NCBI GenBank assembly: GCA_965198225.1
Contig: CBDAOY010000009.1
Location: 736,001 to 800,000, forward strand
DNA length: 64,000 nucleotides
Direction of reading: 5' to 3'
Source of the DNA: Terriglobia bacterium
GTDB taxonomy: Bacteria; Acidobacteriota; Terriglobia; 20CM-2-55-15
Shown: positions 27,762 through 62,142 of the stretch, piece by piece
Layout: each line of letters begins with the position of its first letter
How positions within the stretch are numbered: position 1 is the first letter of the stretch
Notes under the pieces: generated by a model
What the model was told of the DNA's origin: nothing
Seen by the model: only the letters and a program-made list of their open reading frames with translations
The model's database searches: none
Program-made: the position numbers and the translations under genes

Positions 27762-27848
27762 ATGCAATCCGGCACCCACCTCAACCATTACGAGATCCAG
27801 ACTCAACCGGGCGTAGGAGGAATGGGTGAAGTCCGCGAGGAGGCCTGA
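27762..27848 (+). pseudogene. Kinase 5' remnant
   Basis: Translates MQSGTHLNHYEIQTQPGVGGMGEVREEA*. Confidence 0.75.
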
Positions 27849-27878
27849 CGAGCTCGTAAAGCTCACACCCCAATCACC

Positions 27879-28214
27879 ATGATGAGAATCATCATCGACG
27901 TGCTCGCAACCTCGGGGCTCCTCTACGCGCTTGCGTCAGTGCTGCCCGCCGTGCGCCTGAAATCGTTCCGCTCGGCGTTGAGCGTCGCGCTGGTCTACGG
28001 CCTGTTGAATTACTTTCTCTTCTGGCTGTTGGCGCTGATCGCCTTCATCCCGATGCTGCTGACCTTCGGCTTGTTCGGGTTGGTCATCAACGCGGTCCTG
28101 CTGTGGCTGACCGACAAGCTGATCGAAGACTTCGAGATCGATTCGTTGCGTATGACTTTGCTCATGGCGGTGTTGCTGACGGTGGGGAAGCTCGTGCTGC
28201 GCGCGATCCTCTGA
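27879..28214 (+). CDS. Four-TM membrane protein, YvlD/DUF360 (phage holin 4_2) family
   Basis: ALSVALVYGLLN..PMLLTFGLFGLVINAVLLWLTDKL..FEIDS. Confidence 0.8.
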   Translation: MMRIIIDVLATSGLLYALASVLPAVRLKSFRSALSVALVYGLLNYFLFWLLALIAFIPMLLTFGLFGLVINAVLLWLTDKLIEDFEIDSLRMTLLMAVLLTVGKLVLRAIL

Positions 28215-28667
28215 CGGGCAAGGTGCTCAGCGTTTTCAACGGTACGCCTACCATTTGCCCCAGAACTTTCCGCCAACATCCTCCGGAACAGATCTGTAGG
28301 ATTTCCACATGCCTGGTATGTCGTTAGCGTTCATCGGAAGTGCCGCGGCGAGCGCGGCCACAGGATGAGCGAGAAGTTCCCACCGCGGCAGTTTCGATAA
28401 CAAGACTTGAAGGAGGGCGCTGGCCGAATGCGGCGGACGCGGTGGGCTATGGAGAAAGTAGCCGGAAGCGGGCCGGATCTGGAGTGGCGTTGGGGCGAGG
28501 AGGGGGACCGGCGGTCGATGACCGCGTCGATGGTGTGAATCGGAAAGCAGTTGGGTCGGGGAATCGGTGGGTTGAAAGGACGGGATCTGAGGGGATTTTG
28601 CAGCGGAGGCACACTCCGGCGAGGACGTGGCTGAACCGCACGTCGGTCGTCGGTTTGTGAAGGAGGA

Positions 28668-29837
28668 TTAGGACGTATCGCATTGGAAGGCGAGCCTCGC
28701 TACGAGTTGCAGAGCGGTGAAGCGTTGGATGAGAGTCATCGGTCCCTGACAGTGCGGACACGACCAGGAAGAGTTCGAGGTGGTGGTTTCGTCAGATTCG
28801 ACCCTCGGCATGGCATCGAGGAGTTGGCGACAGAGAGCGAAGGCGGCCGACCGGCGGTAGTTGGCCATGAATCCGAAGTGTCGGATGCGGACGAAGCCCT
28901 TCGGCAGAACGTGCAATAAGAACCGTCGGATGAACTCGTCGGCCGCGAGTGTCATGATGCGACTCTTGTTGCCATTGCGGTAATCCCGCCAACGGAACCG
29001 GACCCGGTTACCGTCAAACGAGATCAATCGATGGTTGGAGATGGCGACCCGATGGGTGTAGCGGCCCAGGTAGCGGAGCACCTGTTCGGGGCCACCAAAG
29101 GGTCGTTTGATATAGACGACCCAGTTGCGGGAATGGATCTGGCGGCGGAACCGCCGAAAGTGTTGCGGTTCGCCGAAGGGTCGAATCGAGCCGGACAGTT
29201 CGAGCGAACCGTCGGCGATCGCTCGCCCGAGCCCGTCGATGAACTTGCCACGGAAGACTCGGGCGAGCACCTGCTTGGGGAGGAAGAAGCGCCCAGAACC
29301 CGGAATCCAACGGGACTGATCCGGAGCCAGTCCGCCGGCCGGTACCACGCAGTGGATGTGGGGATGGAACTCCAGGTTCTGACTCCAGGTATGCAGGATG
29401 CCGAAGAAGCCGATCCGGGCGCCGAGTCGTTTCGGATTGGCCGCCACCTCGATCATCGTGTCGGCCACGCTGCGAAACAGCAGGCTGTAGAGTAGGGCAG
29501 GGTTGTGGAAGAAGAACGGATGGAACTGGTGCGGGACGGTGAACACGACGTGGAAGTAGGGGGTGGGCAGCAGTTCGGCTTCTCGTGCTTCGAGCCACCG
29601 TCGTCGGGCCTGGGTCTGACACTTCGGGCAGTGGCGGTTGCGGCAGGAGTTGAACGAGATTCCGGACTCCCGGCCACAATCGGCACACCGGTCGATGTGG
29701 CCACCCAGAGCCGCAGTACGACAGTTCAGGATGGCGCGCAGGACCTTGAGCTTCTGGATGCCGAGGCGGTGACGCTGGAGGAAACCTCGAACCCGGGCGC
29801 GGACGATGTCGGCCACCTCGACGGCGGGCCGGCTCAT
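28668..29837 (-). CDS. IS91-family (Y2 HUH) transposase with Zn-binding domain
   Basis: CRTAALGGH..SCRNRHCPKC, HPHIHC (HUH), YLGRY, FLLHVLPKGFVRIRHFG; ATG 29837 overlaps the integrase stop. Confidence 0.93.
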   Translation of the reverse strand: MSRPAVEVADIVRARVRGFLQRHRLGIQKLKVLRAILNCRTAALGGHIDRCADCGRESGISFNSCRNRHCPKCQTQARRRWLEAREAELLPTPYFHVVFTVPHQFHPFFFHNPALLYSLLFRSVADTMIEVAANPKRLGARIGFFGILHTWSQNLEFHPHIHCVVPAGGLAPDQSRWIPGSGRFFLPKQVLARVFRGKFIDGLGRAIADGSLELSGSIRPFGEPQHFRRFRRQIHSRNWVVYIKRPFGGPEQVLRYLGRYTHRVAISNHRLISFDGNRVRFRWRDYRNGNKSRIMTLAADEFIRRFLLHVLPKGFVRIRHFGFMANYRRSAAFALCRQLLDAMPRVESDETTTSNSSWSCPHCQGPMTLIQRFTALQLVARLAFQCDTS

Positions 29838-30724
29838 TCGCCTTTCTTCTTTCTCAGACGGGGAGACGGTCCCAGATCGGGAACCGGAAGAGAATCGATC
29901 GGGTTCACCACGCGCTGCATGTGCGCCTGAGACAAATGGAGATAGAGGGTCGTCGCTTCCAGATCGACATGACCCAACAGGAGCTGGATGGTTCGCAGGT
30001 CGGTTCCCCTCTCCAGCAGGTGGGTGGCCCAGCTGTGGCGCAGCGTATGTGGGGATACTTTCTTTTTGATGCCGGCACGTTGGGCGGCTTGTTGGACGGC
30101 GTACCAAACCGTCTTCACATCGATGGGCTGTCCGGGCCGGGTCCGGAGCAAACTGGGGAAGAGGTACTCGCCGGGTTTCCGCCAACGCCAGTAGTCGCGC
30201 AGGACTTCCAGCAGTTTCGGTGACAGCGGCACGTCGCGGTCGCGATTGCCTTTACCCTGCCTCACATGGATCACCATGCGTTCGCTATCGACGTCCTCGA
30301 CCTTCAGACGACACAGCTCGGCCCGCCGCAGTCCCGTCGAATACAAGGTCATCAGGATGACGAAGTGATAGGCACTGTTGGCGGAGGCCAGCAGTTGCGC
30401 CACTTCCTCTTCGCTCAGAATCGTGGGCAACCGGGACGGCTGTTTCGGATAGACCAGATCGACCTGGTGATAGGGACGGCGAAGCACCTTCACGTAGAAG
30501 AACCGGAGTGCGGCGATCCGTCCGATGATGGTGTCGACAGCGAGCTTGCGCTCCTGAAGCAGATGCAGCTGGTACTGCCGCATCTGTTCCTGTTCGAGCT
30601 TGTCGGGGGACTTCCCGAAGTAGCGGGCGAAGTCTTCGACCGCGTGAAGATACAGCCGAATCGTAGCGGGTGAGTAGTTCCGGCGCTGGAGTTCCTCCAG
30701 CATCCGTTGTCGCAGCTTCGTCAT
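29834..30724 (-). CDS. Tyrosine recombinase (XerD/IntI-like with SAM-like N-terminus)
   Basis: YSTGLRRAE, GKGNRDR, HTLRHSWATHLLE..LLGH....TTLY; no obvious IntI I2 insertion. Confidence 0.93.
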   Translation of the reverse strand: MTKLRQRMLEELQRRNYSPATIRLYLHAVEDFARYFGKSPDKLEQEQMRQYQLHLLQERKLAVDTIIGRIAALRFFYVKVLRRPYHQVDLVYPKQPSRLPTILSEEEVAQLLASANSAYHFVILMTLYSTGLRRAELCRLKVEDVDSERMVIHVRQGKGNRDRDVPLSPKLLEVLRDYWRWRKPGEYLFPSLLRTRPGQPIDVKTVWYAVQQAAQRAGIKKKVSPHTLRHSWATHLLERGTDLRTIQLLLGHVDLEATTLYLHLSQAHMQRVVNPIDSLPVPDLGPSPRLRKKKGE

Positions 30725-31201
30725 GTGAGCCTCCTTGTGAGGCTCACACTCTATCGGGGGCTCATCACTCTTCGCTCAGCACACGCGTAGCGTCCGCCGC
30801 GCCAGCGGCTTCGTTCAAGTCGCCTACACTTCCTTGTGGATCTCGTCGGGAAAGCCGGGGGTCTGAATGTTCATCCAGTGGCCTTTGTCGTTCCGTTAGC
30901 AAGAGGACACTTTCTATTCGTTCACAAATGACTAAGAATCTGAATGCTGAATTATTTGAGGTGACAAATGTCTGCAAGAAATGGTGACAAGGCGCGCTTC
31001 AACCGTCTGCGCAAGGCAAAACTTCGGATGAGAGAACGTATCCGGGAAGTTCGAAAAGCACTGCAGGAACGAACCGCACGAGCAAATCCGAAGAAGAGTA
31101 CGACGCAAGGGGCTTGAGGTCAATGCAGTGGGCACTTTTCTTGTTAGCGCCCATGCACATCTACGAGTAGCCGACCGACCGCCGAAACCGGTTCGATCCC
31201 G

Positions 31202-31258
31202 ATCACAGTTGTTCTGAACTGATTCGAGGAACTGAAGGAACGTGTGCCAGTGCCTTAG
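31202..31258 (+). pseudogene. Kinase-propeller 3' remnant
   Basis: ITVVLN*FEELKERVPVP*. Confidence 0.8.
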
Positions 31259-31317
31259 GGATCTGTGTTCGAGCCTTCTGCCCCCGACAAACCCTCTCGA
31301 TCCGCCCCACTGCCCTC

Positions 31318-31358
31318 AATCCACCTTGCCGTATAGTCGCCATACCGGAGATGTGCCG
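31318..31358. repeat. Empty hairpin site H3
   Basis: AATCCACCT-TGCCGTATA-GTCG-CC-ATACCGGAG-ATGTGCCG. Confidence 0.7.
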
Positions 31359-31399: not shown

Positions 31400-31458
31400 A
31401 TGGAACCTGGCGCCACACTTGGCCACTAGAGATCTTTTCTCCTCCTGGCAGGGCCGGG
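31400..31458 (+). pseudogene. Kinase 5' remnant
   Basis: MEPGATLGH then degraded HYEILSP codons, preceded by the TTGACC motif. Confidence 0.6.
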
Positions 31459-31600
31459 ACAACGGTCCTTTTATTTAGGTGCGAATAATGAGGGCAATTC
31501 GGAAAGAAATAGCGGAAGAGATCAGACAGGCTGCGCTTGAGGTTTTGCTCCTTCGCGCAAGGTCTGAATCGTTCTCTGGGGCATCGTACGGAGAATTACA

Positions 31601-33265
31601 ATGAAGAGATACCTAGTTACGATCCTCGTGGCCGGCCTCGCGGCTCCCGTCGTGTACGGCCAGCAGGCGCCGGACACGATCCTGACGAATGGCAAGGTCA
31701 TTACGGTCGACGATCAGTTCCGGATCGCAGAGGCAATCGCGATCCGCGGAGATCGATTCGTTGCGGTCGGTTCGAATGCCGAGATTACCGAACTCGCGGG
31801 ACCGAACACGGAGCGCATCGATCTCGAGGGGCGGTCCGTCGTCCCGGGTTTCATCGACAATCATGCGCACTTCATGGAGGAGGGTGCGTACTGGGATCTC
31901 GAGCTGCGGTTCGACGGCGTGGAGTCTCGCCAAGAGGCGTTGAACAGGCTCCGCGCAAAAGCGGACGAGACGCCGGACGGCGAATGGATATTCAACTTCG
32001 GAGGCTGGTCACCGGACCAGTTCGTCGAAGACAAATCTCCGTTTACGCGGGACGAGCTCGACCAGTACTCGCCGGACAATCCGGTCTATCTCATATTCTC
32101 CCGCTCGGACGCCTACATCAACAGCCGGGCCATCGATGCCATCGGCCTCGCAGAGATGAACGAGCCGTGGATTTACCGTGACGCCAACGGCAGAGCCACG
32201 GGTCAGATTGCACCGCAGGGTGCGGGCGCCGTGAGGCGGATGGCCAACTTCATCGACGCGCCGAACGGGGCGCGGGCGAACCTGCCGATGGACGTGGTGC
32301 GTTCCAGCAGCCTTGCGATGCTCCACGATCTCAACGCCGCGGGTCTGACGGCTTCAGGCGGCGCATGCCAGTGGGATGATCTCTATCGCGAGTTCCAGAA
32401 AGAGGGTGTCCAGAGCATGCGGTTTTTCTGCATGCAGGGGCCGAGTGCCGGGCGCGGGCCCGATGCACCTCAGCGTTTTCTCGCCGGACTTTCGGAACTG
32501 ACCTGGCACGACGGCGACGAGTGGATGGACAACACCACCCTTGGAGAGAACATTCCGGGCGGCGGTGGCGACAACCTCTACTCGGCAACCCAGGAACCCG
32601 TGTCGCAGGAGCAGTGGGATCTGTTCGGTGATCTTGCGCTCGAAGTGGCAAAGACAGGCGCCCAGGCGTTGATCCACACTCAGACCGAGGTTGCGATCGA
32701 AGGCAAGATGCGCCAGTTCGAGCGGATAAACGAGATCGTTCCGCTCAGATCCTTACGTTGGGGTCTCATGCATATGGAAGGCGTTACGGTCGATCAAATC
32801 GAACGGCTCCGTGATCTGAACATGGTCATCGCGGTGCATCCGCGCGAGATCGTTACTGGAGGGCTGCTGCTTCGGGTATGGGGCGATAAGAAGTACGCGA
32901 TGCCGCCGCTGCGAGATATTCAGAACATCGGCATCATGTGGGGCCTCGGTACCGACGCGTTCGAGGTCAATCAGTACCGTCCCTTCCAGACCCTATACTG
33001 GGCCGTGACGGGGAAGATGGTTGGCGGTGACGTAGTCAACACCCACACGGTGACGCGCGAGGAGGCCCTGATCGCCCATACGCGCAGCAACGCCTTTATC
33101 TTGTTCCGCGAGCACGATATCGGCTCGATCCAGGCGGGGCATCTAGCCGACCTGGTCGTGACCGACCGCGACTACCTGACGGTGCCGGCGGATGAGATCA
33201 AGGACATCAATCCGGTCATGACGATGGTGGGCGGCCGGATCGTCTACGATGGGAAAGGCTGGTAA
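31601..33265 (+). CDS. Secreted amidohydrolase (Amidohydro_3/YtcJ-like)
   Basis: Signal peptide; DLEGRSVVPGFIDNHAH; GSIQAGHLADLVV..TMVGGRIVY. Confidence 0.88.
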   Translation: MKRYLVTILVAGLAAPVVYGQQAPDTILTNGKVITVDDQFRIAEAIAIRGDRFVAVGSNAEITELAGPNTERIDLEGRSVVPGFIDNHAHFMEEGAYWDLELRFDGVESRQEALNRLRAKADETPDGEWIFNFGGWSPDQFVEDKSPFTRDELDQYSPDNPVYLIFSRSDAYINSRAIDAIGLAEMNEPWIYRDANGRATGQIAPQGAGAVRRMANFIDAPNGARANLPMDVVRSSSLAMLHDLNAAGLTASGGACQWDDLYREFQKEGVQSMRFFCMQGPSAGRGPDAPQRFLAGLSELTWHDGDEWMDNTTLGENIPGGGGDNLYSATQEPVSQEQWDLFGDLALEVAKTGAQALIHTQTEVAIEGKMRQFERINEIVPLRSLRWGLMHMEGVTVDQIERLRDLNMVIAVHPREIVTGGLLLRVWGDKKYAMPPLRDIQNIGIMWGLGTDAFEVNQYRPFQTLYWAVTGKMVGGDVVNTHTVTREEALIAHTRSNAFILFREHDIGSIQAGHLADLVVTDRDYLTVPADEIKDINPVMTMVGGRIVYDGKGW

Positions 33266-33393: not shown

Positions 33394-33477
33394 AGGTCTA
33401 TTCAGATGGCTAGGAGTCTGCGCGGAAGAACGACTTTTTCATTGTGACCACAGCATAGGTCTATTCAGATGGCTAGG
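33394..33477. repeat. Two exact 21 bp direct repeats
   Basis: AGGTCTATTCAGATGGCTAGG at 33394 and 33457. Confidence 0.8.
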
Positions 33478-39972: not shown

Positions 39973-40380
39973 GCTCTCCGTCTCGCTGGCCGAACTCCGA
40001 GCACGGTTGTAGGAATTCCACTTGGCCGTATGGTCGTTAGCGTTCATCGGAAGTGCCGCGGCGAGCGCGGCCACAGGATGAGCGAGAAGTTCCCACCGCG
40101 GCAGTTTCGATAACAAGACTTGAAGGAGGGCGCTGGCCGAATGCGGCGGACGCGGTGGGCTATGGAGAAAGTAGCCGGAAGCGGGCCGGATCTGGAGTGG
40201 CGTTGGGGCGAGGAGGGGGACCGGCGGTCGATGACCGCGTCGATGGTGTGAATCGGAAAGCAGTTGGGTCGGGGAATCGGTGGGTTGAAAGGACGGGATC
40301 TGAGGGGATTTTGCAGCGGAGGCACACTCCGGCGAGGACGTGGCTGAACCGCACGTCGGTCGTCGGTTTGTGAAGGAGGA

Positions 40381-48149: not shown

Positions 48150-48189
48150 CACTCCAACTCCCGATAAGCCTTCTCGGAGATGTGGATTC
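48150..48189. repeat. Degenerate hairpin site H7
   Basis: Right arm TTCTCGGAGATGTGGATTC; left arm and GTCG core degraded. Confidence 0.55.
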
Positions 48190-48335
48190 TGACTGATACG
48201 CGCAGAGAAAATGAAAGTCTTGTAGCCCAACGGCCGCGAACACCACTTGCGCAACAGCGGCCGCACATATCGTATTGACCGCCTCTGTGGACGTGATAGC
48301 AAGCCCGGCCAAGCTTCGTAGCAACAAATTGCCAT

Positions 48336-48611: not shown

Positions 48612-48710
48612 TAACCCCTTCACTGTTTGACACTTGCTCCATTGGTGGTGTGCTTACGAAGCCTGGACAGGCCGGGTTTGGAGTGCGATACGGAACCAGC
48701 TAATACTAAG

Positions 48711-49001: not shown

Positions 49002-49335
49002 TCTTACTCCGTCGTCTGTCAAGCAAGGCGCGGTAGCGCTCGCGGGCTAGATCCAATTGTCGCTTCGGCGTCTTCTGGGATTTCTTTTCGAATGCATGCA
49101 GTACATAAATTGCCTCGGCAAAACTCGCCGTGTAGAGCACTCGATGCTCCCGACCAGTACGAATTCGAATCTCCCTTACGCCAGAACCCACGGTGGACAT
49201 CGGCTTCCAGTCATTCGGAACAAGACCTTGCTGGACCCGGTAGAGCTGCAAACCGAGGACTTGGCGGGCAGCACTGGGAAAGGCCCGCACATCGCGTCGC
49301 GAAGAGCCGAGCCACTCAATTGGTTTGTCCGACAC
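48985..49335 (-). CDS. RelE/ParE-superfamily toxin (HigB/Gp49-like)
   Basis: DWKPMSTVGSGVREIRI..RVLY..IYVLHAFEKKSQKTP. Confidence 0.9.
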   Translation of the reverse strand: MSDKPIEWLGSSRRDVRAFPSAARQVLGLQLYRVQQGLVPNDWKPMSTVGSGVREIRIRTGREHRVLYTASFAEAIYVLHAFEKKSQKTPKRQLDLARERYRALLDRRRSKNASKK

Positions 49336-49374
49336 GACGTATTATACAAGTATTAGTATATTCAGGCAAGTCGT

Positions 49375-49955
49375 CTGCGCATTGGGACCACGTCGAGGGA
49401 CACGCGGCTATGAAGCGAATGACCGGTGCGCAGGTTGTTGCGCTCGGCGGCGACGCTGTGGCGCTCCAATCAGGCAAGGACAACTCGGCCCTCGGGGCCC
49501 GAGGCTGGGAGCCTGTCACGGTGGATCGCGTGGTCGAGGACGGTGACACGGTTGCGCTGGGTGGAGTGACGTTGCGCGCCCTCTGGACGGGGGGCCACAC
49601 GCAAGGAGCAACGATGTGGATGACAACCGTCCAGGAGGGTGGGGACACCTACTCGGTCGCCTTCCGCGGCGGCGAAATTCCGAACCCGGGGGTTCAGCTC
49701 TTCAACAATCCCCGGCACCCGACGGTTGTCGCCGACACGCAGAGGACGCTTCAAAGGCTGAAGGAGCTCAAACCTCCCGACCTCTTCCTCCACAATCACC
49801 CGCAGAATCCGCCCCGCGAGTTGGACCCGGCTCTTCCTGTCGACCCGAGGTGTGTAACCTGCTTTGACGCGGAAGGGTGGAGGAGTCTCGTGGCGCGTGT
49901 CGAAGCCAGATTCGAAGCGATGCTCCGGGAAGCGGGGGGCCGACCGGACCGTTAG
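49375..49955 (+). pseudogene. Subclass B3-like metallo-beta-lactamase, N-terminally truncated
   Basis: AHWDHVEG (partial HxHxDH), VDRVVEDGDTVALGG, GHTQG; no N-terminus. Confidence 0.7.
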
Positions 49956-49982: not shown

Positions 49983-50078
49983 CAGTCGACACCGAAACCG
50001 CCGCGACCGCTCCGATCCTCGTCCAGAACTTCTTCGAAGAGTTGAAGCGTCTGGTTCCGACGGACAATTAGCAGCAAT
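49983..50078 (+). repeat. Kinase 3' remnant, near-identical copy of 27493-27588
   Basis: About 5 mismatches in 96 bp by eye; encodes NFFEELKRLVPTDN*. Confidence 0.88.
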
Positions 50079-50159
50079 ATCCCGGGCACCGCGCGCGGCA
50101 GCTAACGAAGGACTGTCTCCGGCCGGCGATCCGTGTCCCGATCCACGTAATGTCAGTGA

Positions 50160-51517: not shown

Positions 51518-51637
51518 ATGCAACCCGGCACGCAGCTTGGCCATTACGAGATCCTGTCCGCGCTCGGCAAGGGCGGGATGGGGGAGGTGTGGCGAGCGCG
51601 GGACTCCAAACTCGGACGTGAAGTCGCTATCAAGGTA
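51518..51637 (+). pseudogene. Kinase 5' remnant
   Basis: [40 protein letters not shown] then unrelated sequence. Confidence 0.9.
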
Positions 51638-51899
51638 GTCCACCGCCGATCCATCCAGCCCGTTGACCCCGTTCAGGCCAACTGAACGGACCCTCGTGTT
51701 TTTCCTGTCCGCTCCCAGTTGTTGTGTGGTAGTGGTACAGGTCAACAAAGTTTTTAATAATCCACAAGAAGAGGGCGAGGACCGGTGGGTGGCGTTTCCT
51801 AGACCCACGTGATCTTCCAGTACTCCATTAATTTATGGTGCGCTGAATCTATTCAATAGAAGATCAAATAAAAAATGTATCTCAAACCGTGAGGTAGTT

Positions 51900-52994
51900 G
51901 TGGACTTAAGGCGTAGAGATTTTCTGAAAATTATGCCTCTCAGTGTACTTGTGCCGGGACAATTTCAATCCGGAGAGCTCAAAAGCCAGGACTCGAATCA
52001 AATTGAACAGCTTTACGAAAAAGCCATTGTAATAGATGCCCTCATCTCAGCCCGGGATTGGGATGAAGATTGGTTGAAGGCTGTCGAGCAGTCAGGTTAT
52101 ACCGGGCTTCTGACTTCTCTTTCTACTGGGAATTTGACAGCTGCCCTTAGAGATTTGGCCACGTGGGATCAGCGTATTCAAGATAACCCCGACAAGCTTG
52201 TCAGAGCTGTTTCTGCAGCAGATTTCGAACGCGCAAAGCGTGATGGCAAGCTGGCGATGATGTTCGGTTTTCAAAATGCCACGATGATTGGAAATGAAAT
52301 AGATAATTTAGAAAACTTGTACGAGAACGGCACCCGCTGGATTCAGTTGACGTACAACGAACGAAACCTCCTTGGTGATGGCTGCACAGAGCGTACGAAC
52401 GCCGGACTGTCTGATTTTGGTGTTGCTGTGGTCGAGCGGATGAATCAATTGGGTATTATCGTGGATTTGTCACACTGCGGCCGCCAGACAACAATGGACG
52501 GCATACAATTCAGCAATCCCGGGCCGTGTTTCAACCATACTATGTGTGAGGCCCTGTACCCTGATCATCCTCGTGCCAAGACAGATGAGCAGATACGGGC
52601 AATGGCTGATAAAGGCGGGGTAATGGGAATTATCGCGCTCGGCTATATGATCGGCCCGGATCCGGGTGGAGAGACGACAATCGAAACTCATGCTGACCAT
52701 ATCGATCATGCGGTGAAGGTCGCAGGTATCGATCACGTGGGCCTGTCATCAGATTTTACAATCCGTGGGATTTCACGCGGGGTCACCCGTGAAAGCTGGT
52801 ATGTACCCCGTCTGACAAGTTTTAAGCCGTCTTATCAGGTCCGGTGGCCTCCGTGGATTCCTGAGTTGGAATCGCCTGAACGGTACAAGAATGTAGCTCG
52901 CGTGTTGGACCGCCGTGGTTATCGATCCGGTGATATTGAAAAAATATTAGGACTAAACTGGCTCCGGTTCTATCGCGAAGTATTGAAACCCTGA
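51900..52994 (+). CDS. Membrane dipeptidase (peptidase M19), Tat-exported
   Basis: RRRDFLK signal; IQLTYNERN, IIVDLSHCG, GIDHVGLSSDF, IEKILGLNWLR; visibly AT-richer. Confidence 0.9.
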   Translation: MDLRRRDFLKIMPLSVLVPGQFQSGELKSQDSNQIEQLYEKAIVIDALISARDWDEDWLKAVEQSGYTGLLTSLSTGNLTAALRDLATWDQRIQDNPDKLVRAVSAADFERAKRDGKLAMMFGFQNATMIGNEIDNLENLYENGTRWIQLTYNERNLLGDGCTERTNAGLSDFGVAVVERMNQLGIIVDLSHCGRQTTMDGIQFSNPGPCFNHTMCEALYPDHPRAKTDEQIRAMADKGGVMGIIALGYMIGPDPGGETTIETHADHIDHAVKVAGIDHVGLSSDFTIRGISRGVTRESWYVPRLTSFKPSYQVRWPPWIPELESPERYKNVARVLDRRGYRSGDIEKILGLNWLRFYREVLKP

Positions 52995-53043
52995 TTAATA
53001 AGGTTAGGAAGGCCTATCCAGGCACCGGAGGGGTAAATAACCG

Positions 53044-53076
53044 AAAGAACTGAAGGAACGGTCGCCGGTGCCGTAG
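53044..53076 (+). pseudogene. Kinase-propeller 3' remnant
   Basis: KELKERSPVP*. Confidence 0.7.
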
Positions 53077-53169
53077 CCTTCGCTGAGCGACCTTCCAACC
53101 ACCGCAACTCTCTTCCGACTACAGGAATCAGCAGTCCTCGACAATCCACGGGGATGTATGGCCGCCGAC

Positions 53170-53785
53170 ACTCCAAGCTCGGACGTGAAGTCGCCATCAA
53201 GACCCTCCCCGAGGAGTTTGCCAATGACGGGGAGCGACTGGCCCTCTTTGAGCGTGAAGCGAAGCTACTCGCCTCGTTGAACCATCCGAACATCGCCACG
53301 TTCCACGGTTTGGAAGAAGACAACGGTACCCGGTTTCTCGTCTTGGAACTCGTTGAAGGCGACACGCTGGCGTACAGGCTGAAGCGCGGCGCCATCCCCG
53401 TCGAAGAATCCCTCAAGCTCGCGCTCCAGATCGCCGAAGCGCTCGAAGCCGCTCACGAGAAGGGCATCATCCTCCGGGTCCTGAAACCCGCAAAAATAAA
53501 AGTCACACCCGACGGCAAGCTGAAGGTCCTGGATTTCGGTCTGGCGAAGGCATTTGCGGGGGATGGTTCCGACGTGAACTTGTCGCACTCCCCAACGATT
53601 AGCATGGCGGCGACGCAGCAGGGCACGATTCTCGGAACGGCCGCATACATGTCCCCCGAGCAAGCCAAGGGACGCGAGATCGACAAGAGGACCGACATAT
53701 GGGCCTTTGGCTGCGTGCTCTACGAAATGCTCATAGGCCGATCCGCCTTTGGCGGTGAAGACGTTGCGGATACGCTTGCGTTCGT
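53170..53785 (+). pseudogene. Kinase-domain fragment K8, catalytically degenerate
   Basis: Starts at [10 protein letters not shown]; HRDLKPANI replaced by LRVLKPAKI; homology ends at DVADTLA. Confidence 0.85.
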
Positions 53786-54014
53786 GGGGATAAGTAAAAT
53801 AGGAGGGGTTGGCAGTGTAGGGTGTGTGGGAAGCGCAGCCGAGGCCAACCTGGTGCCGGAGGCTCGCGGCCGGGTGGTTTCCCAGCCCGGCATACTGGTT
53901 TCACAGGCGGTTCCAACGCATGGACACGTTGATTTGCACGGGCCAGTACGCTACTTTTGAATGTCGTTTTTTCGATATGGATTACAGAGCGCGATATCAA
54001 AGAAAGACCAACCT

Positions 54015-54782
54015 ATGACACCCATTCTGCGTCTATTTCGAATCCTGCTGCCGGGCATCATAGTGGGCATCGCTTTGAATGCGGCATTCCAGACCAGCGC
54101 GTACAGTCAAGCCCCAGAAGGGTCACCTACAAGAGCGTATAAGCCGCGCCCGCCGGAAGGTAAAGTTCCCATTCTCTGGATTGGTGGTGGCGACTGGCAC
54201 GATACATTGAATAACGCCGGTATCCTGCGATGGTACCTTGAAGCAGCGGGTCCTTACCACATCACTTACACCGAGGATTATGACGTGTTCACCCGCCTGC
54301 GCCCATATCGCGTGGTCGTGATGCATCACCAGGCCCGCAGTATCACAAATGCTGAAGAGCGTGCCCTGCTGGATGCGGTTTCAGCAGGGAAGCCGGTCGT
54401 GGCCCTGCACTCCAGCACGGCGGCGCTCCGGGTTGAAGGGCACGAGCGTCCCAAATATCACGCACTGCTGGGCGCGCGGTTTCTCAAACACCCTCCCCAA
54501 CACGACTTTCGCGTAACGCTGACCGACCGCGCTCATCCCATCCTCAGCGGGCTGGACGATTTCAACATCTGGGACGAGCTCTATATGTTTGACAGTCTCC
54601 AGCCCGATCGCCATGTGTTGATGACCGCGGACTTTGAGGGAACTACCTATCCTATCGCCTGGACCCGGCAGCATGGAAAGGGGAAGGTGTTCTACACGGC
54701 ACTGGGGCACGGCGTCGAGGCCAACAGCAACCCACACTTTCAGCGCCTCGTCCACCAGGCAATCGAATGGGCCCTGGAGTAA
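54015..54782 (+). CDS. ThuA-like (trehalose utilisation, GATase-like) domain protein
   Basis: Signal peptide; GGGDWHD, VALHSS, DELY, PIAWTRQHGKGKVFYTALGH. Confidence 0.85.
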   Translation: MTPILRLFRILLPGIIVGIALNAAFQTSAYSQAPEGSPTRAYKPRPPEGKVPILWIGGGDWHDTLNNAGILRWYLEAAGPYHITYTEDYDVFTRLRPYRVVVMHHQARSITNAEERALLDAVSAGKPVVALHSSTAALRVEGHERPKYHALLGARFLKHPPQHDFRVTLTDRAHPILSGLDDFNIWDELYMFDSLQPDRHVLMTADFEGTTYPIAWTRQHGKGKVFYTALGHGVEANSNPHFQRLVHQAIEWALE

Positions 54783-54869
54783 GGATCGTGGTCCGGCCGT
54801 AGCAGGAGTAATTGCATGGCTGGCTCAGACCACGCCGCGGCCGGACAGCCAGTCAAATCCTTCACTGCA

Positions 54870-54924
54870 GATCAACGTCGTCTTGAACTGGACGGAAGAA
54901 CTAAAGGAACGGGTGCCGGTGCCC
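54870..54924 (+). pseudogene. Kinase-propeller 3' remnant
   Basis: INVVLNWTEELKERVPVP. Confidence 0.85.
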
Positions 54925-55343
54925 TATTCGCCGCCACCGAACCTCCCCGACAGCGTCTCGGTTTGCCACTCTGTTTCAATCCACATGCTCGAAAAGTCGT
55001 TAGCGTTCATCGGAAGTGCCGCGGCGAGCGCGGCCACAGGATGAGCGAGAAGTTCCCACCGCGGCAGTTTCGATAACAAGACTTGAAGGAGGGCGCTGGC
55101 CGAATGCGGCGGACGCGGTGGGCTATGGAGAAAGTAGCCGGAAGCGGGCCGGATCTGGAGTGGCGTTGGGGCGAGGAGGGGGACCGGCGGTCGATGACCG
55201 CGTCGATGGTGTGAATCGGAAAGCAGTTGGGTCGGGGAATCGGTGGGTTGAAAGGACGGGATCTGAGGGGATTTTGCAGCGGAGGCACACTCCGGCGAGG
55301 ACGTGGCTGAACCGCACGTCGGTCGTCGGTTTGTGAAGGAGGA

Positions 55344-56513
55344 TTAGGACGTATCGCATTGGAAGGCGAGCCTCGCTACGAGTTGCAGAGCGGTGAAGCG
55401 TTGGATGAGAGTCATCGGTCCCTGACAGTGCGGACACGACCAGGAAGAGTTCGAGGTGGTGGTTTCGTCAGATTCGACCCTCGGCATGGCATCGAGGAGT
55501 TGGCGACAGAGAGCGAAGGCGGCCGACCGGCGGTAGTTGGCCATGAATCCGAAGTGTCGGATGCGGACGAAGCCCTTCGGCAGAACGTGCAATAAGAACC
55601 GTCGGATGAACTCGTCGGCCGCGAGTGTCATGATGCGACTCTTGTTGCCATTGCGGTAATCCCGCCAACGGAACCGGACCCGGTTACCGTCAAACGAGAT
55701 CAATCGATGGTTGGAGATGGCGACCCGATGGGTGTAGCGGCCCAGGTAGCGGAGCACCTGTTCGGGGCCACCAAAGGGTCGTTTGATATAGACGACCCAG
55801 TTGCGGGAATGGATCTGGCGGCGGAACCGCCGAAAGTGTTGCGGTTCGCCGAAGGGTCGAATCGAGCCGGACAGTTCGAGCGAACCGTCGGCGATCGCTC
55901 GCCCGAGCCCGTCGATGAACTTGCCACGGAAGACTCGGGCGAGCACCTGCTTGGGGAGGAAGAAGCGCCCAGAACCCGGAATCCAACGGGACTGATCCGG
56001 AGCCAGTCCGCCGGCCGGTACCACGCAGTGGATGTGGGGATGGAACTCCAGGTTCTGACTCCAGGTATGCAGGATGCCGAAGAAGCCGATCCGGGCGCCG
56101 AGTCGTTTCGGATTGGCCGCCACCTCGATCATCGTGTCGGCCACGCTGCGAAACAGCAGGCTGTAGAGTAGGGCAGGGTTGTGGAAGAAGAACGGATGGA
56201 ACTGGTGCGGGACGGTGAACACGACGTGGAAGTAGGGGGTGGGCAGCAGTTCGGCTTCTCGTGCTTCGAGCCACCGTCGTCGGGCCTGGGTCTGACACTT
56301 CGGGCAGTGGCGGTTGCGGCAGGAGTTGAACGAGATTCCGGACTCCCGGCCACAATCGGCACACCGGTCGATGTGGCCACCCAGAGCCGCAGTACGACAG
56401 TTCAGGATGGCGCGCAGGACCTTGAGCTTCTGGATGCCGAGGCGGTGACGCTGGAGGAAACCTCGAACCCGGGCGCGGACGATGTCGGCCACCTCGACGG
56501 CGGGCCGGCTCAT
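55344..56513 (-). CDS. IS91-family transposase
   Basis: Identical translation to copy 1. Confidence 0.93.
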   Translation of the reverse strand: MSRPAVEVADIVRARVRGFLQRHRLGIQKLKVLRAILNCRTAALGGHIDRCADCGRESGISFNSCRNRHCPKCQTQARRRWLEAREAELLPTPYFHVVFTVPHQFHPFFFHNPALLYSLLFRSVADTMIEVAANPKRLGARIGFFGILHTWSQNLEFHPHIHCVVPAGGLAPDQSRWIPGSGRFFLPKQVLARVFRGKFIDGLGRAIADGSLELSGSIRPFGEPQHFRRFRRQIHSRNWVVYIKRPFGGPEQVLRYLGRYTHRVAISNHRLISFDGNRVRFRWRDYRNGNKSRIMTLAADEFIRRFLLHVLPKGFVRIRHFGFMANYRRSAAFALCRQLLDAMPRVESDETTTSNSSWSCPHCQGPMTLIQRFTALQLVARLAFQCDTS

Positions 56514-57400
56514 TCGCCTTTCTTCTTTCTCAGACGGGGAGACGGTCCCAGATCGGGAACCGGAAGAGAATCGATCGGGTTCACCACGCGCTGCATGTGC
56601 GCCTGAGACAAATGGAGATAGAGGGTCGTCGCTTCCAGATCGACATGACCCAACAGGAGCTGGATGGTTCGCAGGTCGGTTCCCCTCTCCAGCAGGTGGG
56701 TGGCCCAGCTGTGGCGCAGCGTATGTGGGGATACTTTCTTTTTGATGCCGGCACGTTGGGCGGCTTGTTGGACGGCGTACCAAACCGTCTTCACATCGAT
56801 GGGCTGTCCGGGCCGGGTCCGGAGCAAACTGGGGAAGAGGTACTCGCCGGGTTTCCGCCAACGCCAGTAGTCGCGCAGGACTTCCAGCAGTTTCGGTGAC
56901 AGCGGCACGTCGCGGTCGCGATTGCCTTTACCCTGCCTCACATGGATCACCATGCGTTCGCTATCGACGTCCTCGACCTTCAGACGACACAGCTCGGCCC
57001 GCCGCAGTCCCGTCGAATACAAGGTCATCAGGATGACGAAGTGATAGGCACTGTTGGCGGAGGCCAGCAGTTGCGCCACTTCCTCTTCGCTCAGAATCGT
57101 GGGCAACCGGGACGGCTGTTTCGGATAGACCAGATCGACCTGGTGATAGGGACGGCGAAGCACCTTCACGTAGAAGAACCGGAGTGCGGCGATCCGTCCG
57201 ATGATGGTGTCGACAGCGAGCTTGCGCTCCTGAAGCAGATGCAGCTGGTACTGCCGCATCTGTTCCTGTTCGAGCTTGTCGGGGGACTTCCCGAAGTAGC
57301 GGGCGAAGTCTTCGACCGCGTGAAGATACAGCCGAATCGTAGCGGGTGAGTAGTTCCGGCGCTGGAGTTCCTCCAGCATCCGTTGTCGCAGCTTCGTCAT
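56510..57400 (-). CDS. Tyrosine recombinase
   Basis: Identical translation to copy 1. Confidence 0.93.
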   Translation of the reverse strand: MTKLRQRMLEELQRRNYSPATIRLYLHAVEDFARYFGKSPDKLEQEQMRQYQLHLLQERKLAVDTIIGRIAALRFFYVKVLRRPYHQVDLVYPKQPSRLPTILSEEEVAQLLASANSAYHFVILMTLYSTGLRRAELCRLKVEDVDSERMVIHVRQGKGNRDRDVPLSPKLLEVLRDYWRWRKPGEYLFPSLLRTRPGQPIDVKTVWYAVQQAAQRAGIKKKVSPHTLRHSWATHLLERGTDLRTIQLLLGHVDLEATTLYLHLSQAHMQRVVNPIDSLPVPDLGPSPRLRKKKGE

Positions 57401-57629
57401 GTGAGCCTCCTTGTGAGGCTCACACTCTATCGGGGGCTCATCACTCTTCGCTCAGCACACGCGTAGCGTCCGCCGCGCCAGCGGCTTCGTTCAAGTCGCC
57501 TATGCTCCCATGTGGATCTTGCCAGAAAGGCCCCGTTTCAGGCGCTTCGCAGGTTTCTCCGTATCGGCGGCGTTACAGGATATTGCCTTCCTGATTGACC
57601 CCAAGTCCGTTCCGTAGTCTGATCTAGGC

Positions 57630-57707
57630 GTGATCCAACCCGGTTCAGCGCTCGCGCACTATGAAGTCGTTTCTGCCCTCGGCAAGGGCGGCATGGGCGA
57701 GGTGTAG
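57630..57707 (+). pseudogene. Kinase 5' remnant
   Basis: [25 protein letters not shown], preceded by the TTGACC motif. Confidence 0.85.
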
Positions 57708-57858
57708 AAAGCCCGGGAAAATCCACTTTGACAACGGATGCGACGGTTCAAGTCTGCATGAGTTGACCAGCGGGGCCGACAGCGAGGCCCAGCGACACCG
57801 ACCGGACTGCTGAAACAGTTTTGTGGTGCCTATCGCGTAGAAGGTACGCGACAAAGAC

Positions 57859-58695
57859 ATGAGTGGCAAACGCCAGATCGACTACGGGGAGGTTCGGCGC
57901 TACTTTGCTCAAGCTGGCGCCGACACGGCGGCTTGTGCGAGCTACATGGCCCACGCACAAGACTTGCCCGAAAACGCTGTTCGTTATCGCTTCCGGAAGG
58001 AAGGCGCAGCGATACGCGACTGGCTCGATGTCGGGGGGCCGCAAGCGCGGGTACTCGACTTGGGCTGTGGGTCGGGGACCTGGACCGAGCTCTTCGCTCA
58101 GCGCTTCGGCAGCGTCATCGGGATCGAACAGAGCCCTGCGATGCTGGTCGCTGCAAAAACGAAACTCATGGGACGGTCGAACGTGGAGCTTCTGAACCAG
58201 GACGTTCGAGAGCCATTGCCACCGGGGCCATTTGATCTCGTCTTTTTAGGAGGGATCTGCATGTACCTGAGCGACGCTGACACGATCGCGCTCGTTCAAG
58301 CAGTTATCGAACGTCTCGGTGATCGAGGGCGGGTCGTTTTACGGGAGACTACCGTTGCGAACGGATACGAGCACGTAGAGGGCGAGTATCATGCGATCTA
58401 TCGCAGCGTCGACGTTTACCGAAGGCTCTTTCGAGAGGCTGGCTTGTCGCGCGTCGACACACGTCGAAACTACGCCTATACCTATATGGAGATCGCAGTC
58501 GAACTCGTCGAACTGCGACGCCGCTACCTGCGTATGCTGCCGTACACGTCACCTTTTCTTGGCGCTTTGACCTGGTGGTCGCTACGGGCTACGTCGCCCG
58601 TATGCTTCGCGCTTCTTCCCCGAGCGGCGGCGTGGCTTCGTGTGTGTTGGCCAAAGCTCCAGAACCATTTTTTTATGCTAGAGAATGCAAGTTGA
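57859..58695 (+). CDS. Class I SAM-dependent methyltransferase, phosphoethanolamine N-methyltransferase-like
   Basis: VLDLGCGSG; FDLVFLGGICMYLSDAD..GRVVLRET. Confidence 0.8.
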   Translation: MSGKRQIDYGEVRRYFAQAGADTAACASYMAHAQDLPENAVRYRFRKEGAAIRDWLDVGGPQARVLDLGCGSGTWTELFAQRFGSVIGIEQSPAMLVAAKTKLMGRSNVELLNQDVREPLPPGPFDLVFLGGICMYLSDADTIALVQAVIERLGDRGRVVLRETTVANGYEHVEGEYHAIYRSVDVYRRLFREAGLSRVDTRRNYAYTYMEIAVELVELRRRYLRMLPYTSPFLGALTWWSLRATSPVCFALLPRAAAWLRVCWPKLQNHFFMLENAS

Positions 58696-58722
58696 CGCTC
58701 TGGCAGATTCAGAGAGATCTAC

Positions 58723-60585
58723 GTGAAAACCGACCGATGGAATCTCACGCCCAATAAGCGCCCTGAAAGTATCCGCAAAGCGGTGATTCTCGCCGCCGGT
58801 GTTGGCAACCGGCTTCGTCCATTCACCAACAAGCTTCCAAAATGCCTGGTTCAGGTGGCCGGTGTTCCCATCCTGGACAATACACTCGCGCATCTGGCCG
58901 CGCTCGGTACCGAGGAAATCGCTATCGTCGTCGGCCACCACAAGGAGATCATCATCGAGCGGTTCGGCGCGAGTTACCTCGGAATGTCGATGACCTACGT
59001 CGTGTCGGAGGACTACGAGAAAACCAACAACATCTATTCGTTATGGCTCGCCCGTGATCATCTCACTCAAGACGTACTGCTGCTGGAGGCAGATGTTTTT
59101 TTCGAGCGCGCGGTTTTGGAGCGACTACTTTTGCAGAGTGGCGGCAACCTGGCCATCGTGTCGCGGCACCAGAGTTGGATGTCTGGCACGGTCGTCAGTG
59201 TGGATGCTCGTGGTCGCATCCAGGCAACGATCGACTCCCAGAATCAAGAGGATGGCTTCGATTATGCAAAGTTCTTCAAGACGGCCAACATCTACCTCTT
59301 TCGTCAGGACTTCCTCAACCGGTATTTCCTGCCGCAGCTGGAAGCCTACATCACGTCTAGAGACTACGACGAATACTACGAATCGATTCTCATCACGCTG
59401 GGGCACCGAGGCAAGAACAACCTCGTCGCTGTGGATTGTGACGACCTGAAGTGGTACGAGATCGATGATGAAAGCGACCGATTGGCGGCTGAGTATCTAT
59501 TCAACTCAGGCGAGGAGCGTTACGACCACGTCCAGAGCCAACACGGGGGGTATTGGCGCTTTGGGTTTGCCGATCACGCTTACTTGTACAATCCGTATTA
59601 CCCGCCTAAGCCGATGTTCGCGGATTTTGAGAACAACCTGCGCGAGCTGGTGCTCAACTATCCTCCCGGACAGGAGGTTGTCGCCCGGCTCGCCGGCACT
59701 TTGATCGGGCAACCTTCCTCTCGCATTCTGGTTGGAAACGGGGCTTCGGAACTGATTAAGATCATCTCTGGCCGCCTTCCCGGACCGATCGCCTGTCCTG
59801 TACCCTCGTTCAACGAGTACGAGGACGCTGCGCGAGCGGGGGCCTTCGTCCCGTTCGAACTGCCCTCTCCCACTTTCGAACTCGACGTAGATGCCTTTGC
59901 CCAACGGGTTCTCGCGACCGAGGCAAGACTGGCCATCGTAGTGACACCTAACAATCCCACCTCGTTGGCGGTGCCCAGAACAGACATCTTGCGCCTTGCC
60001 GCGAAACTCGAATCGACCGAATGCATGCTGGTTGTCGATGAATCCTTCATCGACTTTGCATACGACTATCAGGAGTTGAGCGTGGAGGGTTGGGTTGACA
60101 GCGTTCCTAACCTCGCGGTCCTCAAGAGCTTGAGCAAGTCCTTCGGGATCGGCGGACTGCGGCTGGGCTATCTCCTGACGGCCAATGAGGGACTCGCGAA
60201 CGCGGTGCGCGCCGAGTTGCACATCTGGAACATCAACGGTTTCGCGGAAGCCTTCCTGCGCCAGGCACCGCGCTGGCGCAAGGCGTTCAGGCAGAGTTGC
60301 GCTCTGGTTCGCGACCACTGCGATGAGCTCTACGAAGGGTTGAACGAGATCCCCGGAATGACAGCATATCGACCTCAGGCTAACTTCGTATTGTGTCGTC
60401 TCCCAGCTCCAGGCCCATCCGGTCCGGTCATCGCGAAACGGCTCTTCGTGGAGAACAACATCTTCGTCAAGCACTGCGCTGGTAAGCACATGTCGGATGC
60501 GGATCGGTATCTGCGCATCGCCAGCAGGACGGCCGCGGACAACCATATGCTCGTCGAAGCGATGCGGCAATGCCTGACCCAATGA
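58723..60585 (+). CDS. Fusion of a LicC-like nucleotidyltransferase and a class I/II PLP enzyme (CobD/HisC-like)
   Basis: AVILAAGVGNRLRP..PKCL, YEKTNNIYSL, WYEIDD; PNNPT, VVDESF, KSLSKSFGIGGLRLGY. Confidence 0.9.
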   Translation: MKTDRWNLTPNKRPESIRKAVILAAGVGNRLRPFTNKLPKCLVQVAGVPILDNTLAHLAALGTEEIAIVVGHHKEIIIERFGASYLGMSMTYVVSEDYEKTNNIYSLWLARDHLTQDVLLLEADVFFERAVLERLLLQSGGNLAIVSRHQSWMSGTVVSVDARGRIQATIDSQNQEDGFDYAKFFKTANIYLFRQDFLNRYFLPQLEAYITSRDYDEYYESILITLGHRGKNNLVAVDCDDLKWYEIDDESDRLAAEYLFNSGEERYDHVQSQHGGYWRFGFADHAYLYNPYYPPKPMFADFENNLRELVLNYPPGQEVVARLAGTLIGQPSSRILVGNGASELIKIISGRLPGPIACPVPSFNEYEDAARAGAFVPFELPSPTFELDVDAFAQRVLATEARLAIVVTPNNPTSLAVPRTDILRLAAKLESTECMLVVDESFIDFAYDYQELSVEGWVDSVPNLAVLKSLSKSFGIGGLRLGYLLTANEGLANAVRAELHIWNINGFAEAFLRQAPRWRKAFRQSCALVRDHCDELYEGLNEIPGMTAYRPQANFVLCRLPAPGPSGPVIAKRLFVENNIFVKHCAGKHMSDADRYLRIASRTAADNHMLVEAMRQCLTQ

Positions 60586-61214
60586 CGAGTCCATGCAGCC
60601 GACGAAGCGCCCTGTCTTTTGTCTACGACAGAGCCAACCTGCTGACGTTGGCGGGGCTAGTGTGCGGAATCCTGGCTATTTGGTTCAGCGCGCGCGGCGC
60701 CTATCCCGCCGCCACCACAGCCCTGCTGTGGGCGCTGTTTTGCGATTGGTTCGATGGTCCGCTGGCTCGGCGAATGACCGACCGGACCGACGAGGACCGG
60801 GCCTTCGGCGCACAACTCGACTCCCTGACCGATATCGTATCCAGCGGCGTCGCTCCCGCGGTGCTCCTGATCAGCATTGGCAACTTCGACCCCTGGTTTC
60901 TACCAGGCGCTTTTCTGCTGGTGGTCGCGGGAGCGATTCGGCTGGCTCACTTCAACATTTTTGGCACCGACGGTGGCGCATACAGCGGCCTGCCGATCGA
61001 CAGCAATATCATCGTTGTGACGGCTCTGTTTCCTTTCCGTGAGCTGCTCGGGCACGCCACGTTCTCGTGGGCTCTTTACGTTGCGGTCGCCACACTCGCC
61101 ATCCTAAACGTTGCCCCCTTTCGGATGCCGAAGCTGGTGGGTGGCTGGTACTACATTGTCGCGATCTACGTCGTTGCCATGACCGCACTGAACCTGAGCT
61201 CATTAACGCGCTGA
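60570..61214 (+). CDS. CDP-alcohol phosphatidyltransferase
   Basis: ANLLT, DWFDGPLARR..FGAQLDSLTD signature; multiple TMs. Confidence 0.9.
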   Translation: MPDPMTSPCSRRSALSFVYDRANLLTLAGLVCGILAIWFSARGAYPAATTALLWALFCDWFDGPLARRMTDRTDEDRAFGAQLDSLTDIVSSGVAPAVLLISIGNFDPWFLPGAFLLVVAGAIRLAHFNIFGTDGGAYSGLPIDSNIIVVTALFPFRELLGHATFSWALYVAVATLAILNVAPFRMPKLVGGWYYIVAIYVVAMTALNLSSLTR

Positions 61215-61257
61215 GCTGGACTCAAAAGTCGCGGCATGATTCCAGTGAATCAACATT

Positions 61258-61290
61258 GAAGCACTGAAGGAACGGGTGCCGGTGCCATGA
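61258..61290 (+). pseudogene. Kinase-propeller 3' remnant
   Basis: EALKERVPVP*. Confidence 0.8.
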
Positions 61291-62139: not shown

Positions 62140-62142
62140 AGG

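Follow-up and report, generated by a model that had tools for sequence, protein, structure and literature searches.

Kinase gene ends around accessory genes in a Terriglobia bacterium: probable relics of decaying tandem arrays, with a dif-like site targeted by an IS91-family element

In the window analysed here, a 64,000-nt stretch from a Terriglobia bacterium (part of contig C9 of a genome of 6.4 Mb in 9 contigs, G000 in the following), one protein family predominates: its members, of about 889 codons, combine an N-terminal Ser/Thr kinase, a membrane span and a C-terminal PD40 propeller. Membership in the Ser/Thr kinase-PD40 proteins is given by scores of 176-178 bits with Pkinase and 38.7-66.4 bits with PD40 for the copies at 45466-48135 and 37276-39972, while the TolB propeller model matches the kinase partially; a short conserved motif terminates most family members. 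The kinase genes follow one another head to tail on a single strand, often with the stop of a copy overlapping the start of its successor. Among them lie shells, in which unrelated accessory genes (the cargo) are bordered by short pieces, or stubs, of a kinase start (5' stub) or a kinase end (3' stub). The original prediction had described seven such arrangements, and all seven were found where it had placed them, with every kinase-derived piece on the plus strand. The cargo also proved to be what it had been called: a dipeptidase, a ThuA-family gene, a three-gene lipid block, a holin-like gene, an amidohydrolase, a toxin-antitoxin and metallo-beta-lactamase fragment, and an IS1595-type insertion sequence (IS). 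Two of the stubs, those at 31404 and 53045, are marginal as kinase matches (Table 1).

Kinase sequences were searched for in the whole genome by a six-frame scan with a family profile built from 27 full-length copies, and nhmmer searches with DNA profiles of the two gene ends (first 93 nt and last 75 nt) were run over the window. The genome holds 43 complete or frameshifted kinase copies in same-strand arrays. A rough classification of the fragments gave 36 that are anchored at the gene start (a handful of them from other kinase families), 26 anchored at the gene end and 2 that are interior only, the last figure being a lower bound because short pieces of the poorly conserved propeller, two-thirds of the gene, are not distinguishable from 86 unrelated PD40 matches. 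When other-family kinases and pieces resuming after an insertion were left out, 19 of 25 clean start-anchored pieces were no longer than 110 codons and 14 of 21 end-anchored ones no longer than 30 codons (binomial p 5e-13 and 2e-16, respectively, for uniform breakage). Remnants are thus not spread evenly along the gene, and the claim that random decay should rarely spare the extreme ends stands in so far as breakage is far from uniform genome-wide; it fails for random deletion under constraint, which keeps the gene start in a sizeable share of simulated runs (see below). The start-anchored pieces have lengths of 23, 24, 24, 25, 27-30, 35, 41, 42, 45, 62, 69, 74, 87, 88 and 108 codons with a tail to 610, a continuous series with no preferred cut. 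Every stage of decay is represented: intact and frameshifted copies, the copy K4, split by the IS1595-type insert and lacking only about 10 profile positions, a fragment of 234 codons, a shell on contig C7 (217690-219946) that retains 69 codons of the start and 159 of the end around cargo on the opposite strand, and stubs of 23-45 codons. An almost empty shell, with no cargo, lies on contig C5 (729986-730150, minus strand), where about 50 nt separate a kinase-type 5' region from the terminal 33 nt or so of a kinase downstream.

The stubs appear to be free of constraint. Two shells are common to G000 and G002, a complete genome of the same genus, and their stubs are 78.9% (71/90 columns) and 75.6% (65/86) identical, compared with 90.5% and 85.1% at third codon positions of the cargo, which suggests that stubs evolve at least as fast as neutral sites. 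Stops, frameshifts or indels are found in the stubs, with stops or frameshifts in those at 57633, 31192, 31404 and C6 341355. Given the broken frames and a divergence no slower than neutral in the two pairs, the stubs can be classed as probable decaying pseudogene relics. In a contig from sequencing run X9 (a related strain), kinase codon 69 or so and 19 further nt are joined to position 51633 of the window, where in G000 the cargo-side sequence starts after a stub of 41 codons; the same junction with a longer stub fits the prediction of stepwise trimming. The hexamer ATCAAG (51633-51640) closes the 41-codon stub and opens the part common to the longer-stub strain, an arrangement that, judged from the contigs, would be compatible with deletion between short direct repeats.

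The proposal that the coding termini persist through cis-acting signals, in the manner of pack-type elements, found no support: stubs diverge fast, their break points are spread, they have no border sequence in common, they are direct rather than inverted ends, and gene starts survive constrained deletion often enough in simulation. In particular, none of the seven stub-cargo spacers tested has a second copy in the genome, and no transposon end or repeat was seen at the cargo borders. Similarly, all 13 cargo proteins searched are single copy in this genome, with no cargo in two kinase slots. The repeat search, at the settings used, returned 0 inverted pairs, the stubs being the direct-oriented start and stop of one gene, and no target duplications were found at cargo borders. 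Hence a pack-type transposon, with terminal inverted repeats or target duplications, fixed boundaries and the same ends repeated around different cargo, is not what is seen. Recent amplification of kinase units was ruled out, since the closest pair in the genome is only 87% identical; with single-copy cargo in addition, neither shells nor kinases appear to be undergoing copying now. Known RNA genes and tRNA-type integration scars were excluded as identities of the stubs by Rfam (gathering thresholds) and tRNA scans of the window, which returned nothing.

The reading that we favour, with a probability of about 55%, is that the shells are relics of birth-and-death decay in large co-oriented tandem kinase arrays that accept accessory genes, and that stub survival follows from array geometry, neighbour constraint and detectability. 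Redundant kinase copies would act as neutral landing places for accessory genes, which would enter by transposon insertion or illegitimate replacement. As the whole array is co-oriented, any such replacement would leave the start of a kinase to the left of the newcomer and the end of a kinase to its right. Small deletions that came afterwards would be tolerated only inside dead DNA, so that the bases beside a working neighbour, that is the first or last kinase codons, would be hit least. In parallel, the ends would be the last parts to become unrecognisable, as it is in the N-terminal kinase lobe and the final 30 codons or so that the family is conserved. Indeed, synonymous codon identity, taken over the 27 paralogues, rises from 0.29-0.46 (mostly 0.31-0.40) in the propeller interior (codons 281-860) to 0.56-0.59 in the final 29 codons, so that short 3' pieces stay visible; the raised 3' value may be attributed to overlap of the last 40 nt or so of a kinase with the start region of the next. 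A deletion simulation (1500 runs per setting, retained pieces counted from 60 nt upwards) is in line with this scheme: when a working neighbour adjoined codon 1, 22-72% of runs kept a start-anchored piece, at a median length of 88-169 nt, near the observed 24-45 codons. The stubs are abundant, variable in length and unconstrained, one is longer in a related strain, and all intermediate stages occur; if events followed the proposed order, neighbour constraint and detectability may be sufficient for the pattern.

A number of results weigh against this decay reading. The same simulation retained interior pieces in 35-84% of runs, about as often as start-anchored ones, and the observed 20-to-2 excess of anchored over interior pieces therefore relies on the assumption that most interior pieces escape detection. 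A junction lying amid dead DNA was kept in only 1-4% of runs, yet there are at least five double-stub junctions with a short stub on both sides (31192/31404, 54857/57637, C4 29428/26735, C4 60400/60159 and C6 341570/341355), whose survival would need stepwise timing or some protection of the spacer. Moreover, the estimate of neutrality comes from two orthologous pairs of less than 100 nt each, and the first cargo gene is co-oriented with the stub in 12 of 14 cases, a bias that is suggestive only (p 0.006 against 0.5, p 0.16 against a background of 0.7). With pseudogene relics of other expanded families, which reflect birth-and-death evolution and the deletional bias of bacteria, the shells have in common frameshifts, stops, truncations of all sizes, unconstrained divergence and nested accessory genes; the difference lies in their scale and regularity, with about 60 terminal fragments beside 43 copies and both sides of a junction repeatedly surviving. 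If decay is the correct explanation, the arrays would offer a quantifiable case of an expanded gene family becoming a nursery for accessory genes, and array geometry alone would make decay look designed, a caution for the reading of raw sequence.

The conservation of the gene ends could alternatively mean that they work as homology arms, so that the cargo of a shell moves between kinase copies, either within one cell or once a related strain has taken it up, through recombination within the first 100 and last 15 codons or so, the only stretches alike enough among paralogues. Indeed, the nucleotide identity between paralogues is 0.61-0.77 for codons 1-160 and 0.64 for the final 9 codons, as against pairwise values in the propeller interior of 0.33-0.56 for DNA (mostly 0.40-0.50) and about 0.15-0.47 for protein. 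Nine short 3' stubs start within a few bases of one another, near the terminal motif; the region 49983-50126, with the 3' stub at 50000 inside it, matches 27493-27635 (K4 3' end plus following sequence) at 86.8% identity; and in G002 a stub of the 57633 type, together with the first 400 nt or so of the methyltransferase, is joined to a different gene, a full-length version of the beta-lactamase-fold gene that is truncated here. We regard this explanation as very unlikely, as cargo single in copy and confined to one kinase slot is not what it predicts, homologous recombination works poorly on arms of 35-90 nt at about 75-85% identity, the lengths of the 5' stubs show no clustering, and recombination would copy a shell while leaving the origin of the first one unexplained. 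The common 3' boundary may only mark where similarity becomes invisible; a fixed 3' break point near the terminal motif was accordingly dropped as evidence, since the sequence upstream of that motif is too variable to show where homology ends.

Besides the kinases, the window holds three full copies and one truncated copy of a 2504-bp insertion sequence that is present about ten times in the genome. Its transposase belongs to the IS91 family (Y2_Tnp 211 bits, Zn_Tnp_IS91 105 bits; NCBIfam transpos_IS91 431, cut-off 125), and its second gene encodes a recombinase with a SAM_4 and a catalytic domain that matches the Xer-type model NF040815 (223 bits, cut-off 220). An integron integrase of IntI type was not recognised, the model TIGR02249 giving 202.9 bits in two stretches against a cut-off of 265. 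Eight copies are essentially full length; relative to the query copy, five show 100% identity and three 98.9-99.96%. The element sits exactly at the core of a site that we call attK, with GTCG at both junctions. attK is an imperfect, dif-like inverted repeat composed of outer boxes ATCCAC/GTGGAT, inner GTAT-like boxes and the GTCG core, and it forms part of the spacer between non-overlapping kinases, which consists of about 75 nt past the stop, attK and about 130 nt before the next start. The inverted boxes are recognisable, with the common GTCG core, at 8 of 10 left and 7 of 8 right IS junctions among those listed, the contig C7 copy and the left side of the copy C6b being without them. IS91-family elements insert beside a GAAC/CAAG-type tetranucleotide, with no palindromic target. 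Given its position at the centre of imperfect inverted repeats with GTCG on both sides, targeting by the present element looks to be of the recombinase and not of the IS91 type. IS copies related at 85% identity are present in G002, where the homology continues into the arms of the site and into the start of the kinase. G002 also has about 20 copies of an element that shares 67-69% identity with the window IS. In G000, contig C6 (643572-645786) carries a second, distant element with the gene pair of the window IS, as open reading frames (ORFs) for a 394-aa transposase-like and a 258-aa recombinase-like protein, and this element adjoins an attK right arm. This side result, a compact element with an Xer-like recombinase and a rolling-circle transposase that targets a family of dif-like sites, may matter more than the shells themselves.

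A further indication that attK is used comes from a 470-520-nt unit with three copies at 96.6-97.8% identity, whose homology starts and stops at attK cores; the IS lies at the left core in two copies and is absent from the third. In G002, the orthologue of one stub-plus-cargo unit has an unoccupied attK ahead of it and a different upstream gene, the switch of neighbours lying within about 60 nt of the site. Hence attK appears to be a real recombination target and possibly a module boundary. Folding as a single-stranded hairpin was abandoned as an explanation of the site, since four unoccupied attK sites gave z values of 0.97, -1.25, -2.29 and -0.13, and only one of the four folded better than its shuffles.

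These data lead to the main rival of the decay reading, namely that the spacer module (post-stop spacer, attK and promoter-like 5' region) is functional and kept by selection on the host (through expression or termination of cargo) or on the element (through recombination), while the stubs are the ragged edges of deletions around it. The occupied attK sites, the core-bounded triplicated unit and the neighbour switch in G002 all speak in its favour, as does the survival of the double-stub junctions, which the neutral model with a junction amid dead DNA rarely kept. The 130-nt part of the spacer contains TTGAC-like and TAGT-like hexamers, and by eye such a pair precedes about 13 of 18 stubs. In addition, contigs from run X13, a sponge metatranscriptome, match 52053-52225, 52617-52950 and 52977-53169 at 100% identity, and the last of them extends from the dipeptidase stop through the 3' stub to the beginning of the kinase fragment that follows. 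As the library may contain DNA and the contigs give neither strand nor transcript ends, they are a weak hint of transcription and read-through; the X13 bins that lack cover (for instance the 5' stub) and runs X7, X9 and X10 are neutral as to transcription from the stub. Against a functional spacer, the right arm and 5' region are only 68% and 50% identical between G000 and G002, a consensus promoter scan found sites no more often than in shuffles (4 vs 4.1; 5 vs 4.4) and none in the spacer modules except one at the 31337 core, a terminator-like hairpin follows the stub at 31404, and the 53045/53085 junction has no attK. A consensus terminator scan of the same kind was at chance level. All in all, we consider a selected spacer possible but doubtful, and homology arms and pack-like capture less likely still. 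The idea that shells provide cargo with a promoter and a mobilisation handle gains partial support, which attaches to the neighbouring spacer and not to the stubs: the mobilisation handle finds a counterpart in the spacer, with a dif-like site that an integrase-bearing IS uses and that bounds the triplicated unit, and not in the stubs, while the promoter has on its side the hexamer pair seen by eye upstream of most stubs and against it the consensus scan, which missed that pair, and the hairpin.

The presence of an IS91-family (Y2, rolling-circle) transposase in about ten copies, often beside stubs, and the triplication of a 0.5-kb unit next to the IS could also suggest that the shells are non-autonomous capture vehicles whose kinase termini are moved in trans by the IS91 transposase or the recombinase. 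We hold this to be highly improbable, and it is already largely refuted here. The IS never adjoins cargo in the window, half a spacer and a stub lying between them at every copy; the copies are nearly identical and hence younger than the shells already common to G000 and G002, so that the IS did not make the shells. Capture by the IS in the ISCR/IS91 rolling-circle manner was ruled out on these two grounds. Moreover, no shell is repeated with both its ends, the kinase copies are old, and the stubs, which are not inverted repeats, decay as neutral sequence without a fixed boundary or target duplications; two IS copies share no more than the 0.5-kb flank, at 97.8% identity as against 100% for the IS itself. 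Pack-MULEs, Helitrons and ISCR/IS91 elements are known gene-capturing systems, and the shells resemble them in having unrelated genes between gene- or element-like ends with an IS91-family transposase nearby; they differ in that terminal inverted repeats, target duplications and multi-copy shells are not seen, cargo lies off the IS end, and the IS is the younger partner.

It may also be that the kinase arrays form a chromosomal cassette platform in which the Xer-like recombinase of the IS91-family element recombines attK sites, an idea that we rate as quite unlikely. DNA between two attK sites, whether kinases or cargo, would be excised as a circle and reinserted. In such a circle, 3' stub, spacer, attK, 5' region and 5' stub would form one contiguous extended attachment region, and attachment arms reaching into the gene ends would explain why the ends survive together while the interior is replaceable. 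If attK sites also move neighbouring genes, they would constitute a cassette system of a new kind in bacteria other than the well-studied Proteobacteria. The nearest known counterparts are Xer/dif modules, among them the pdif modules carried by Acinetobacter plasmids, and elements that make use of Xer recombination. As there, two inverted arms surround a small core, an Xer-like tyrosine recombinase is present, and unit homology ends at the cores; by contrast, the recombinase is here carried on an IS with an IS91 transposase, the candidate sites lie in chromosomal kinase arrays, and only one unit (three copies) has homology that ends at cores. Integron cassettes are similar in their same-strand genes between imperfect inverted-repeat sites and in the SAM_4 and catalytic layout of the recombinase, but the IntI model stays below its cut-off, folding of the attC type is not observed for attK, and most units here carry their own upstream regions. 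An attI-Pc platform, for which no dedicated search was made, was not seen in the stretches examined. The linkage of a tyrosine recombinase with an IS91/ISCR-type element in one mobile context is also found in GIsul2 / CR2-sul2, where an ISCR unit is reported to move by integrase action (PMC9376610). That system is a resistance island whose attachment site is defined and lies in one particular gene; in G000 a compact 2.5-kb IS instead inserts at many related sites. A literature search, with supplements outside its scope, found nothing on kinase shells of this kind or on this type of IS.

Comparison with relatives gives the window the appearance of a fast-rearranging accessory region. It is not syntenic in G002 or in a further genome, G003, comparison of orthologous slots failed for most shells, and the three-gene lipid block has no match in either genome at E 1e-30. 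The dipeptidase of G003 is 89% identical to that of the window, with no kinase-profile match within about 9 kb on either side, and its neighbours there have their counterparts on contig C4 here. G002 and runs X9 and X10 all contain the same ThuA remnant of 316 nt. The aminotransferase part of the fusion protein in the lipid block is of class I/II, and we take the block to resemble phosphonate head-group activation pathways for lipids. Coordinates are collected in Table 1.

Table 1. Kinase copies and remnants, cargo genes, attK sites and insertion sequences along the window
Feature	Position	Strand	Remarks
K4 kinase, 5' body	22498-24924	+	profile 2-790, frameshifted
2.4-kb insert in K4	24925-27299	+	IS1595-type transposase 24976-25962; ORF 26472-27254 without Pfam match
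K4 kinase, 3' end	27300-27572	+	profile 801-888; 92.7% identical to 3' end of contig C6 kinase
Unoccupied attK site	27647-27690	no strand	outer boxes ATCCAC/GTGGAT, core GTCGCC
5' stub	27762-27833	+	profile 1-24, E 1e-6
Cargo: holin-like gene	27879-28214	+	Phage_holin_4_2
IS copy 1, 2504 bp	28322-30825	-	tyrosine recombinase 296 aa and IS91-family transposase 505 aa; at attK core
Triplicated unit	30826-31339	+	attK right arm, 48-codon ORF about 30968-31115, 3' stub, spacer, left arm of next attK
3' stub inside triplicated unit	31192-31257	+	holds a stop
5' stub, marginal, frameshifted	31404-31458	+	E 0.022
Terminator-like hairpin after stub 31404	31450-31469
Cargo: amidohydrolase	31601-33265	+	Amidohydro_3
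Intact kinase	37282-39969	+	profile 2-889
IS copy 2	40035-42538	-	at attK about 60 nt past kinase stop
Two intact kinases	42854-45463, 45466-48132	+	stop/start overlapping
Cargo: 5'-truncated metallo-beta-lactamase-fold gene	49092-49955	+	full length in congener G002; HTH antitoxin-like gene beside it
3' stub	50000-50061	+	E 9.4e-10
5' stub	51518-51640	+	profile 1-41, E 1.2e-20
Cargo: M19 membrane dipeptidase	51900-52994	+	single copy
3' stub, last 11 codons or so, marginal	53045-53075	+	E 0.067
Kinase 5' fragment	53085-53786	+	profile 1-234, first 24 codons degenerate; profile match 53157-53786 (profile 25-234), DNA homology from about 53077
Cargo: ThuA-family gene	53961-54782	+
3' stub	54844-54924	+	profile 863-889, E 5.8e-17
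IS copy 3	54998-57501	-	at attK between 3' stub and following 5' stub
5' stub with in-frame stop	57633-57718	+	profile 2-24/29; match 57636-57718, E 2.2e-15; orthologous decayed stub in G002
Cargo: methyltransferase, nucleotidyltransferase-aminotransferase fusion, CDP-alcohol phosphatidyltransferase	57859-61214	+
3' stub, last 12 codons or so	61255-61290	+	E 8.4e-7
IS copy 4, truncated	61354-62139	-	first 786 nt; abuts DUF885 gene fragment

Some further features of the array deserve mention. At overlapping stop/start junctions (e.g. 45440-45500 and 18100-18150), a 9-nt inverted repeat, GGGTGCCGG / CCGGCACCC, has one arm in the last codons of a kinase and the other in codons 3-5 of its successor. 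At 18123-22498 a kinase breaks off at profile position 556 and continues without a gap at position 6 of the following copy, which carries frameshifts within its first 134 codons, an apparent deletion spanning a tandem junction. The DUF885 fragment beside IS copy 4 (61354-62919) matches only the C-terminal third of its family model. Directly after an intact kinase, 48336-48611 is occupied by a non-coding repeat of about 277 nt: a 965-nt query that holds it (48136-49100) gave 115 blastn matches, the best copy being 91% identical over 277 nt, and many copies at 80-86% are present in G002 and G003. Finally, a repeat of about 52 nt (33407-33458), located between the amidohydrolase and a kinase-type 5' region, has many copies of about 90% identity on several contigs.

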